The notes under the pieces: model-generated
The model's database searches: none
The model's input: only the letters and a program-made list of their open reading frames with translations
What the model was told of the DNA's origin: nothing
Shown: positions 17,893 to 19,894 of the stretch, in pieces
Layout of the letters: the number at the start of each line of letters is the position of its first letter
Position numbering within the stretch: the stretch's first letter is position 1
Assembly: GCF_003790525.1 (NCBI RefSeq)
Contig: NZ_CP033635.1
Source of the DNA: Escherichia coli
GTDB taxonomy: Bacteria > Pseudomonadota > Gammaproteobacteria > Enterobacterales > Enterobacteriaceae
Reading direction: 5' to 3' (one strand)
Length of the DNA: 64,000 nt
Made by a program: the position numbers and the translations under genes

Positions 17893-18552
17893 TCATGCGG
17901 TCATCCAGTTTTTTAGAATATTCGCCACCACGGGAGCGAAAGGTGCCAGATAACCGTCGACGGGGGTGAGTAATTCGTCGATAACCGCTTGCAGCAGGTC
18001 GTCATCCTCAAGCCCCTCTGAAGGGTCAATGCCATTAGCCCACAGAAGGCTGTCGGAAAGCTGCTTACGTTTTTCAATCAATGCCCGATTATTACGTTCA
18101 CTATCGCCAAGGTTGAGTACCTTAATCGCATCGATAGCTCTCGGCGTCGTCCCTTCAATTCGACCACTGATCTTGAAGATAAACTCGGTTTCACATTCCG
18201 GCATAAGCGGCGTTAACAGCAATGGCTGGTTCTTATGCGAGTCGTCACACTGGCCTTTTGTTTTGCAGCTTGCAACGATATTCGTGAATTCCAGACTGCG
18301 AGCAGGAGCTAAATCCCTGGCTTCGACATGTTCATTAACGGTATCGCGGTTTGTACCTGTCACGCGATCGCAGCAATAAGCACAGAGATAAAATTGCTCC
18401 TGAGCGCACTGCTGGCTGAGATCGCCAACGATATCCCATTTTTTTTGCGCATAAAGTTCCTGAAACCACTGATTGGCATTTTTATCCCGTGGTTTTGCTC
18501 TCACCCACTGTTGCAAACTGGCCGGCGGTTGCCCTTTAGTTATTTCGCGCAT
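17893..18552 (-). CDS. HNH-motif endonuclease-like protein, candidate Septu PtuB-type effector
   Basis: 219-aa ORF with Cys pair C57/C60-C61, N73-E74-H75, then C96/C102 and H106 (Cys pair - N..H - Cys pair - H, as in HNH zinc nucleases); start overlaps upstream ATPase gene by 17 nt; absent from this position in K-12 as recalled. Confidence 0.75.
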   Translation of the reverse strand: MREITKGQPPASLQQWVRAKPRDKNANQWFQELYAQKKWDIVGDLSQQCAQEQFYLCAYCCDRVTGTNRDTVNEHVEARDLAPARSLEFTNIVASCKTKGQCDDSHKNQPLLLTPLMPECETEFIFKISGRIEGTTPRAIDAIKVLNLGDSERNNRALIEKRKQLSDSLLWANGIDPSEGLEDDDLLQAVIDELLTPVDGYLAPFAPVVANILKNWMTA

Positions 18553-19894
18553 GTTTAATTTCCTGTTTGCGCAGAAGCATTCTGGCTTTCACCAGTTCAA
18601 GATGGTTTTCAGGAAGTTCCAGGCTTAGCGTATTCAGAAGAGCGTTAGCGTTGATAAAGTCGTTTTTCTGAATCAGATCCAAAAGATCGTTAAGTTTTTC
18701 TGCCACTGTCGCATTGCGAATATCCGTATCCATCACATTCAAAAGCACAGTATTCGCATCTTGCCCATACAGAGACGGGAGCTGCGTTAATTCGCCATTA
18801 TCCAGAGAATAAACCAGCACATCTTTGTAATCACTGATCACTAAAGGAGAGTGGGTTGTTAAGACAAACTGGCAATGTGGGAATGTTGTCGTCAGACGCT
18901 GGATGATTGTACGCTGCCATGTTGGATGCAGGTGCATGTCCACTTCATCAATTAATACAATTCCCTCGCCGTTTAGCGGGTTTTCTAACATCGGGTTCAT
19001 CATTGCCAGGCGGCGAGCAATATCGCCGACTAACGCCATCAGTGATTTTTCACCCTGCGATAATTGCAGCACATTCAGTGTCTGGCCATTTTTATCAATC
19101 GACATATGCAGGCGAGGTTTACGCCTGACGCGTAAGTTGCTGAACCCTGGCATAAAGCGACTAATGGCCGTTCTGACGGCGGTCAACTGGCGATCCCGGG
19201 ACGAGGCCATGATTGCCGTTAATGCATTTAAGACGGTGTTATCGAGATCTATCCTGGTACTGAGCTTATCCAGAACGTCTTGGGGTAAGCCCGATTCATT
19301 TTCTGCATCTTCGCGATTGCGAAACCACTCAAAGAAACGGCGGAAATCAATACCCTGATTCAGGGCGTTATCGTAGCCATCCAGTTGCAAAAAATTATGA
19401 CGTTCTTTTATTTTCAACGGCACATCCAGCACGACACGTTCTACGGGATAGAAGGCGATAAGCGGGAAGGATGCCCCGCTATTCTGGGTGTATTGATCTC
19501 GATAAAACGCAGCCAATTGGCTGGCCTCTTGCAGGCTGGAGGCGGTGGTCGATTTTTTCCCACTGGCCGTTCTGGCAAGCAACCAACGGTAGGGCGTAGC
19601 GGCCTCCGTCGCTGGATGCGTATTCAGTACCTGAAGTTCAATTGTCGCCGAACTCCTACCGTTCAGAATAGCGTCTTCAGGAATAGGGCTACCGTTACCT
19701 TTTTCAGTACGAACTCGGGCAACGAACCAACTCAGGCTGGTTGCCAACGATTTTAATATTGATGTTTTACCTGCACCATTATTACCAATAAAAACGGTCA
19801 CATTGCTCTTGAACTCCTCCACTGGAGCCAGATGAACTTCAAGTTCTTCAAACCGCCCCAGATTAGTGAGCTTAAGCGTGCGGATATTCATCAT
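18536..19894 (-). CDS. ABC/SMC-type (AAA_15/21-like) ATPase, candidate Septu PtuA-type
   Basis: 452-aa ORF with Walker A GNNGAGKTS (res 37-45), signature-like LSQGEKS (~278-284), Walker B IVLIDEVD (~312-319) and H-loop TTHSP (~346-350); non-ATPase insert between Walker A and signature. Confidence 0.8.
   Translation of the reverse strand: MMNIRTLKLTNLGRFEELEVHLAPVEEFKSNVTVFIGNNGAGKTSILKSLATSLSWFVARVRTEKGNGSPIPEDAILNGRSSATIELQVLNTHPATEAATPYRWLLARTASGKKSTTASSLQEASQLAAFYRDQYTQNSGASFPLIAFYPVERVVLDVPLKIKERHNFLQLDGYDNALNQGIDFRRFFEWFRNREDAENESGLPQDVLDKLSTRIDLDNTVLNALTAIMASSRDRQLTAVRTAISRFMPGFSNLRVRRKPRLHMSIDKNGQTLNVLQLSQGEKSLMALVGDIARRLAMMNPMLENPLNGEGIVLIDEVDMHLHPTWQRTIIQRLTTTFPHCQFVLTTHSPLVISDYKDVLVYSLDNGELTQLPSLYGQDANTVLLNVMDTDIRNATVAEKLNDLLDLIQKNDFINANALLNTLSLELPENHLELVKARMLLRKQEIKHARNN

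Follow-up and report, generated by a model that had tools for sequence, protein, structure and literature searches.

A stand-alone type I Septu operon downstream of smrB in Escherichia coli, predicted to direct its defence against tRNA-Tyr

The subject of this study is a two-gene locus within a 64,000-nucleotide stretch of Escherichia coli DNA (contig NZ_CP033635.1, assembly GCF_003790525.1), the whole of which is called the window below. The two genes form one operon, an insertion flanked by the yfc fimbrial operon and smrB, and they are almost certainly the ptuA and ptuB genes of a Septu defence system:

18536..19894, minus strand: ptuA, encoding a 452-amino-acid (aa) ABC (ATP-binding cassette)/SMC-type ATPase of a type I Septu system (open reading frame list, profile searches)
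17893..18552, minus strand: ptuB, encoding a 219-aa HNH nuclease (open reading frame list, PADLOC, profile and fold matches)

The last 17 nt of the ptuA reading frame, stop codon counted, overlap with the first 17 nt of ptuB, and the genes are therefore translationally coupled. When we searched the PADLOC models with the ATPase, the best was PtuA1 (PDLC00271, E 1.8e-168), with residues 2-450 aligned to positions 1-420 of the 421 in the model, and 24 of the 25 highest-ranked models were PtuA; PtuB1 (PDLC00344) matched the ptuB product over its full length (E 5e-95). The Pfam matches of PtuA were AAA_21 (1.8e-16), AAA_23 (4.2e-16), SMC_N (2.5e-11) and also AAA_15. Its closest solved relatives by sequence were the PtuA of retron Ec83 (5e-63) and then that of Ec78/Eco7 (~1e-47 to 7e-47), followed by Septu PtuA 8EE4 (3.5e-32), AriA (~1e-7) and a Thermus OLD nuclease. 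PtuB gave no Pfam match even at E<=10, and a single-sequence phmmer search with it against PDB found no match. A profile built from 45 PtuB homologues reached the solved PtuB chains 9e8z_E, 9n69_F and 8ee7_C, which come from retron Ec83, a retron I-A complex and E. coli Septu, and the PtuB structure model, with a predicted local distance difference test score (pLDDT) of 77.5, matched only PtuB chains in PDB at E<=2e-3, the best being 8eea_G (3.7e-6). The locus thus combines a full-length PtuA profile match with an HNH-type PtuB encoded directly downstream in the same operon, and the catalytic residues K43, D316 and E317 of PtuA and H75 and N91 of PtuB are all intact.

The motifs on which the ATPase assignment turns, and the core of its partner, are located as follows:

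19760..19786, minus strand: Walker A (P-loop) GNNGAGKTS, PtuA residues 37-45, with K43 (exact string position; invariant in homologues)
19043..19063, minus strand: ABC signature LSQGEKS, PtuA residues 278-284 (exact string position; invariant in homologues)
18923..18961, minus strand: Walker B IVLIDE (D316, E317) and D-loop VDMHLHP, PtuA residues 312-324 (string position and homologue alignment)
18845..18859, minus strand: H-loop TTHSP, PtuA residues 346-350 (string position; H348 and S349 invariant in homologues)
18235..18384, minus strand: HNH core, PtuB residues 57-106 (invariant in 45 homologues)

The PtuA motifs are far above chance level. The string IVLIDEVD occupies residues 312-319 (nt 18938-18961) and HLHP residues 321-324, while LSQGEKS aligned with the LSDGQR of Ec78/Eco7 PtuA, which has been named its signature motif (PMC12819146). 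Among 54 PtuA homologues of 65-90% identity, residues G37, N39, G40, G42, K43, T44 and L278-S284 were invariant, as were D316, E317, D319, H321, H323, P324, H348 and S349. An earlier note on this DNA, made by a reader who had only the letters and a list of open reading frames, had put the Walker A motif at residues 37-45 (nt 19760-19786) and the signature, Walker B and H-loop within residues ~278-350, and the exact positions (278-284, 312-319 and 346-350 for the latter three) agree with it. Its broader suggestion of an SMC/RecF/OLD-like defence ATPase, with PtuA named among the examples, is borne out by the PADLOC ranking, by the solved relatives and by the Foldseek comparison described below. 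The C-terminal PtuB-binding domain and the overlapping HNH partner gene were absent from that note. In PtuB, residues C57, C60, C61, N73-E74-H75, N91, C96, C102 and H106 were invariant in the 45 homologues, and these residues would form an HNH core with a zinc-knuckle pattern.

We built an AlphaFold2 model of PtuA from the 54-sequence alignment (mean pLDDT 77.6, predicted template modelling score 0.74). Its fold consists of an ABC/SMC-like head followed by a C-terminal helical PtuB-binding domain, as in type I Septu. When the model was compared with PDB by Foldseek, the top 50 matches were all PtuA chains (E 2e-33 to 4e-22), which argues that the modelled head is an ABC head of the SMC/Rad50/RecF branch; this was the check that the earlier note had proposed, and the outcome that would have counted against it, a structure lacking an ABC/RecA-like head, was not seen. 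The head is made of an N-terminal half carrying Walker A and a C-terminal half carrying the signature, Walker B, D-loop and H-loop. The earlier note had supposed that a middle domain of ~230 aa was inserted between the two, and it had contrasted this arrangement with the HisP cassette encoded elsewhere in the window (44507-45280, plus strand). The contrast is correct, since HisP has an LSGGQ signature and compact motif spacing. However, Walker A and the signature are 115 residues apart in HisP and 241 in PtuA, so the excess is ~125 aa, not 230, and residues 46-277 are mostly ATPase head; the real insertion is a short helical element at the position of a coiled coil.

The boundaries of these parts follow from a HMMER alignment with Eco7 PtuA, in which query residues 4-193 correspond to Eco7 residues 66-248 and query residues 210-448 to Eco7 residues 292-539. 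Eco7 PtuA has been divided into an N-terminal domain (1-63), an ATPase domain (64-254 and 311-442) interrupted by a coiled coil (255-310), a linker (443-483) and a C-terminal domain (484-550) of three helices that binds PtuB (PMC12673091). Read against this map, the alignment shows that our PtuA lacks the N-terminal retron-binding domain and that the first half of its ATPase head spans residues 1 to ~193; most of residues 46-193 align with the N-terminal half of the Eco7 ATPase domain, and in the model this half includes a beta-hairpin (82-109), a helix (122-137) and the FYPVER strand. Three further elements can be placed:

19154..19315, minus strand: helical insertion, PtuA residues ~194-247, at the coiled-coil position of retron-Eco7 PtuA (model and alignment)
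18539..18712, minus strand: C-terminal three-helix domain, PtuA residues ~395-452, predicted to bind PtuB (model and alignment)
19295..19438, minus strand: near-invariant segment, PtuA residues 153-200, after the FYPVER strand (homologue alignment set against model confidence)

The insertion was modelled as helices 184-201, 205-214, 219-232 and 235-247 (pLDDT 58-73) and is ~27 aa shorter than the Eco7 coiled coil, the alignment gap falling at query 193/210 against Eco7 248/292. The C-terminal domain was modelled as helices 395-409, 413-426 and 432-451, and it aligned to Eco7 PtuA up to residue 539 of the latter. Within the near-invariant segment, R153, K161, H166, Q170, D172-Y174, D183-W190 and E195-E200 were the same in all 54 homologues, yet residues 153-182 were modelled at a pLDDT of only 37-47. 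The segment is thus a candidate interface, or a candidate substrate- or trigger-binding element, that may become ordered only in the complex.

What this operon does can be approached through a near-identical allele. Septu Ec^B88 of E. coli JBBDAGI-19-0041 consists of PtuA WP_000981116.1 (452 aa) and PtuB WP_016243072.1 (219 aa) (PMC13096335, Nat Commun 2026, Supplementary Data 8). Over the first 399 of the 452 residues, 395 of the 399 compared are identical between the two PtuA proteins (differences T220A, I228L, Y356C and N366D), and the PtuB proteins agree at 218 of 219 positions (V198I). The first 399 nt of the Ec^B88 clone begin inside smrB and map to window positions 20190-19792 with 4 mismatches; the two alleles therefore occupy the same chromosomal locus. 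When expressed from its native promoter, Ec^B88 acts against Demerecviridae (T5-like phages) as well as T4 and T6 but gives no protection from T2, and its two genes alone, with 300-bp flanks, protect strain DH10B with no toxicity reported (PMC13096335). Defence is abolished by PtuA K43A or D316A and by PtuB H75A or N91A, and growth arrest is seen at high multiplicity of infection (PMC13096335). Cleavage of tRNA-Tyr in the variable loop at C48/A49 occurs only upon infection, extra tRNA-Tyr rescues the phage, and T6 escapes through SegB-driven amplification of its own tRNA-Tyr gene (PMC13096335). A second E. coli study mutated Septu I at PtuA K43, D316/E317 and H321 and at PtuB K6 and H75, and found that PtuA D316A/E317A and H321 mutations abolish the synergy of Septu I with tmn (bioRxiv 2022.08.21.504612); the residue numbering of these mutants is that of the proteins in the window. 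The system, its motifs, the need for both enzymes and the tRNA-Tyr outcome are therefore already known from an allele of the same locus. A full-text literature search for WP_000981121 and WP_001206999, the accessions of PtuA and PtuB as encoded here, found no paper.

The best explanation of the locus is a stand-alone type I Septu operon providing a tRNA-Tyr-directed, abortive-infection-like defence, and we put the probability of this explanation as a whole at about 0.8. It supposes that the present allele would behave like the near-identical Ec^B88. Judging from solved PtuAB complexes, PtuA would dimerise head to head around nucleotide and each dimer would bind one PtuB, the HNH nuclease being held, as solved homologues suggest, by the C-terminal three-helix domain of PtuA. 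Defence would require both that PtuA bind nucleotide and that the HNH active site in PtuB be intact, as in Ec^B88. Upon infection by T5-like or T-even phages, a signal would activate the complex, and host tRNA-Tyr, together with phage tRNA-Tyr where present, would be cut in the variable loop at C48/A49; translation would then stall, the infected cell would stop growing and the phage yield would collapse. It is likely that tRNA-Tyr is the physiological target of this particular allele. We infer that PtuB itself cuts the tRNA, and this is the weakest step of the mechanism.

Several points weigh against this explanation. The published experiments were done on the Ec^B88 allele, which is five substitutions away, and the comparison of the PtuA proteins stops 53 residues short of the C-terminus. 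The trigger of Ec^B88 was not found, a tail-sheath candidate having been excluded (PMC13096335). The cleavage of tRNA was seen in vivo and retron-Eco7 PtuAB left tRNA-Tyr uncut in vitro (PMC12673091), so the cleavage could be indirect. Furthermore, retron-Eco4 PtuAB does not deplete tRNA, and the stand-alone Septu of ATCC 25922, according to the summary given in PMC12673091, is reported to degrade DNA in an ATP-inhibited manner, so that targets vary within the family. Finally, NCBIfam cut-offs are missed by PtuA (352 of the 500 bits required), by PtuB (93.3 of 150) and, for the model TIGR02646, again by PtuB (42.3 of 52.15).

The main rival is a DNA-targeting variant of the same system, on the pattern of the ATCC 25922 Septu, in which PtuA would bind ATP without hydrolysing it and would restrain PtuB, and a fall in ATP in the course of infection would release PtuB to nick or degrade phage DNA. 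We consider this unlikely here, since the proteins are 99% identical to those of Ec^B88, where tRNA-Tyr was seen to be cleaved and its overexpression to bring rescue, and are only 23-26% identical to those of ATCC 25922; PtuA also matched the retron PtuA proteins (5e-63 and 7e-47) better than that of ATCC 25922 (3.5e-32), and Eco7 likewise depletes tRNA-Tyr. The same resemblance to retrons raises the question of whether the operon could be the effector module of an Ec78/Ec83-like type I-A retron, either orphaned or acting in trans, and restrained by a distant reverse transcriptase (RT) and multicopy single-stranded DNA (msDNA). The closest solved relatives of PtuA are indeed those of retrons Ec83 and Ec78, the PADLOC retron models ATPase_I-A (3.1e-114) and HNH_I-A (1.9e-22) both gave matches, and the retron Ec78 PtuA and PtuB models are the best NCBIfam matches of the two proteins. 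However, the scores just given fall under the equivalog cut-offs of those very models (NF041760 and NF041761), and our PtuA, whose start aligns to about residue 65 of retron PtuA, does not have the N-terminal extension of ~63 aa with which retron PtuA contacts the RT and the non-coding RNA (ncRNA) and has a shortened coiled-coil region; this extension is absent from stand-alone PtuA (PMC12819146). No RT gene lies beside ptuAB, where the neighbours are yfcO and smrB, no retron RNA was matched in Rfam at E<=1 across 15000-23000, and none reached the Rfam gathering score across the whole window, where a tRNA was the sole match. Homologous cassettes in three distant genomes also come without an RT, and the two genes of Ec^B88 protect DH10B by themselves with no toxicity reported. 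We have therefore rejected a retron effector identity, which we regard as very improbable; nor does PtuB belong to the TIGR02646 subfamily of putative retron-system HNH endonucleases, given its score.

Two other identities are so improbable that they need little discussion. The ATPase might belong to a different defence system built on an ABC-type ATPase (PARIS AriA, Gabija GajA, an OLD-family nuclease or Lamassu LmuB), some of which appear among its more distant relatives, but the HNH partner gene and the ranking of the matches speak against all of these, and no TOPRIM match was found in Pfam searches of PtuA and PtuB. It might instead be a housekeeping ABC protein, that is, a transporter cassette or a repair ATPase of the RecF/RecN/SbcC type without any defence role. 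However, the matches to transporter and repair families are far under the family cut-offs, there is no permease neighbour, the gene is coupled to an HNH nuclease, and ptuA is accessory, as no more than 183 of the 5426 complete E. coli genomes carry it; for a transporter cassette the distance from Walker A to the signature (241 residues against ~115) is also wrong.

Within the stand-alone Septu explanation, one speculation concerns how the complex is kept silent. The window system could belong to a retron-like but retron-free PtuAB clade that is held inactive, and then switched on, by a substitute for msDNA, with PtuA residues 153-200 and the shortened coiled-coil element serving as sensor or as tRNA-binding surface. 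We think this doubtful, but if it were true it would represent a distinct mode of sensing within Septu, and the decay of the locus described below (475 stubs and 47 deletions of the PtuB-binding domain) might reflect an autoimmune cost.

The operon fills a variable islet, and the features around the genes are the following:

17852..19979, no strand: variable islet of ~2.1 kb, from the yfcO stop to the smrB stop (comparison with empty-site genomes)
19926..19955, minus strand: candidate sigma-70 promoter CTGACA-18-TAAGAT, within the 85 bp that separate the smrB stop from the ptuA start (consensus scan, 9/12 matches)
17862..17888, no strand: 8-bp inverted repeat ACGGATGG / CCATCCGT in the space where yfcO and ptuB converge (seen in the sequence)

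On one side ptuAB is flanked by a convergent fimbrial adhesin gene of the yfcO family, and on the other by smrB, which is read in the same direction across the 85-bp gap, and then by prmB, aroC and mepA. The candidate promoter is only loosely consistent with the native-promoter activity of Ec^B88, because the 300-bp flank used there also takes in the 3′ end of smrB and does not show where the promoter lies. The inverted repeat is a possible bidirectional terminator; a terminator scan did not flag it because it has no T-run, and the other matches of that scan lie inside coding sequence. In empty-site strains the place of the islet is taken by a 140-bp intergenic region with REP (repetitive extragenic palindromic)-like palindromes GCCGGATAAGGC...GCATCCGGC (E. 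coli FDAARGOS_1288, L003 1651-1790), and a search for a target-site duplication or other sequence shared between the islet edges and this region gave only chance matches of 6-8 nt. The gene upstream of ptuAB, smrB (19980-20531, minus strand; gap 19895-19979), encodes a ribosome-collision endonuclease. Depletion of tRNA-Tyr should stall ribosomes, so a functional link between smrB and Septu is conceivable, but the insertion site may just as well have brought the two together by accident. Elsewhere in the window, the surrounding genes have a GC content of 0.51-0.58, which drops to 0.37-0.39 at 10500-12000, just upstream of the fimbrial usher gene (12088-14742), and this AT-rich segment at the head of the yfc-type fimbrial operon may be horizontally acquired or regulatory. 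The only Rfam or ARAGORN match in the 64-kb window is a tRNA-Arg (anticodon CCT) at 636-710 on the minus strand.

The 2.4-kb ptuAB region is 100% identical to that of strains such as E. coli SMS-3-5 (NC_010498.1). In each of the 183 complete E. coli genomes that carry it, ptuA is present as a single chromosomal copy of at least 99% identity. The ptuA/ptuB junction is kept in 136 of these, whereas the remaining 47 have lost 187 bp between two imperfect direct repeats of 11 nt, CCACTGTTGCA and CCACTGTCGCA (window 18516-18702; E20, L004 1789-1823). This deletion removes PtuA residues 399-452, that is, the PtuB-binding domain, together with PtuB residues 1-12, and the resulting variant is probably inactive, judging from the parts lost; RefSeq nevertheless annotates both of its truncated reading frames (404 and 207 aa). 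The final 234 bp of ptuB (window 17884-18117) were found at 95-100% identity in as many as 658 complete genomes, so that ~475 of them, including the uropathogenic strain 536 (L002 2501-2734) and Nissle 1917, carry a deletion remnant of the Septu locus: an unannotated ptuB stub stands alone and the equivalent of window positions ~18118-19979 is lost. No plasmid copy above 80% identity was found in a plasmid search, whose best matches came from an Aeromonas record (68%) and from Enterobacter plasmids (59%). Overlapping ptuAB cassettes of 68-75% identity, in unrelated contexts and without an RT, occur in Sodalis, Chrysiogenes arsenatis and Nitrosomonas. In Nitrosomonas sp. Is37 (L007 1492-11374) the 68%-identical PtuAB lies within a type I restriction-modification operon, flanked by hsdS and hsdR, and on the Enterobacter sp. 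MGH plasmids (H67-H69) the 59%-identical copy adjoins a restriction S subunit gene; the neighbourhood of Septu with type I restriction-modification is thus a recurring one.

The practical value of these results lies in annotation. In most genomes RefSeq labels PtuA 'AAA family ATPase' and PtuB 'hypothetical protein', as it does in SMS-3-5 (WP_000981121.1 and WP_001206999.1, respectively; L001 4194-6195), the latter because PtuB has no Pfam match and misses the TIGR02646 cut-off. Given these labels, the lack of a Pfam match and the missed cut-offs, an experimentally validated defence system is invisible to standard annotation, and strains like SMS-3-5 carry a functional-looking Septu that ordinary annotation hides. 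In addition, the natural series found in E. coli (intact operon, C-terminal-domain deletion, stub and empty site) is usable for studying the gain and loss of a defence system.

Among known systems, the operon appears from its sequence to be a member of type I Septu that is closest to Ec^B88, and nearer to the PtuAB of type I-A retrons than to the Septu of ATCC 25922. It shares with Ec^B88 the locus downstream of smrB, gene products of 452 and 219 aa, the 17-nt overlap and the residues K43, D316, H75 and N91 that are essential there, and over the residues compared it differs in five substitutions, none of them within a catalytic motif. The Septu of ATCC 25922 (8EE4, 8EE7, 8EEA), whose proteins have 23-26% identity to those of the window, is summarised in PMC12673091 as an ATP-inhibited DNase without ATPase activity, made of a PtuA hexamer and two PtuB and with no coiled-coil domain; the window system, in contrast, would be of the tRNA-Tyr-cleaving type by analogy with Ec^B88, and it retains a short helical element in place of the coiled coil. 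Unlike the type I-A retrons Eco7 (Ec78; 9KJX, 9NNB) and Eco4 (Ec83; 9E8Z), it has no RT, ncRNA or msDNA, and its PtuA is shorter than that of Eco7 by the N-terminal domain (~63 aa) and by ~27 aa in the coiled coil; since there is no RT or msDNA here, the sequestration by msDNA and the phage D15 nuclease trigger of Eco7 cannot apply. SMC, Rad50 and RecF heads are only 13-18% identical to PtuA, which has no long coiled coil, hinge or zinc hook but only the helical element of ~50 aa, and the partners of SMC and Rad50 are Mre11/SbcD or a kleisin, whereas that of PtuA is an HNH nuclease. In PARIS AriA and in OLD/GajA, the nuclease is a TOPRIM (AriB or a C-terminal domain), whereas here it is a separate HNH protein.

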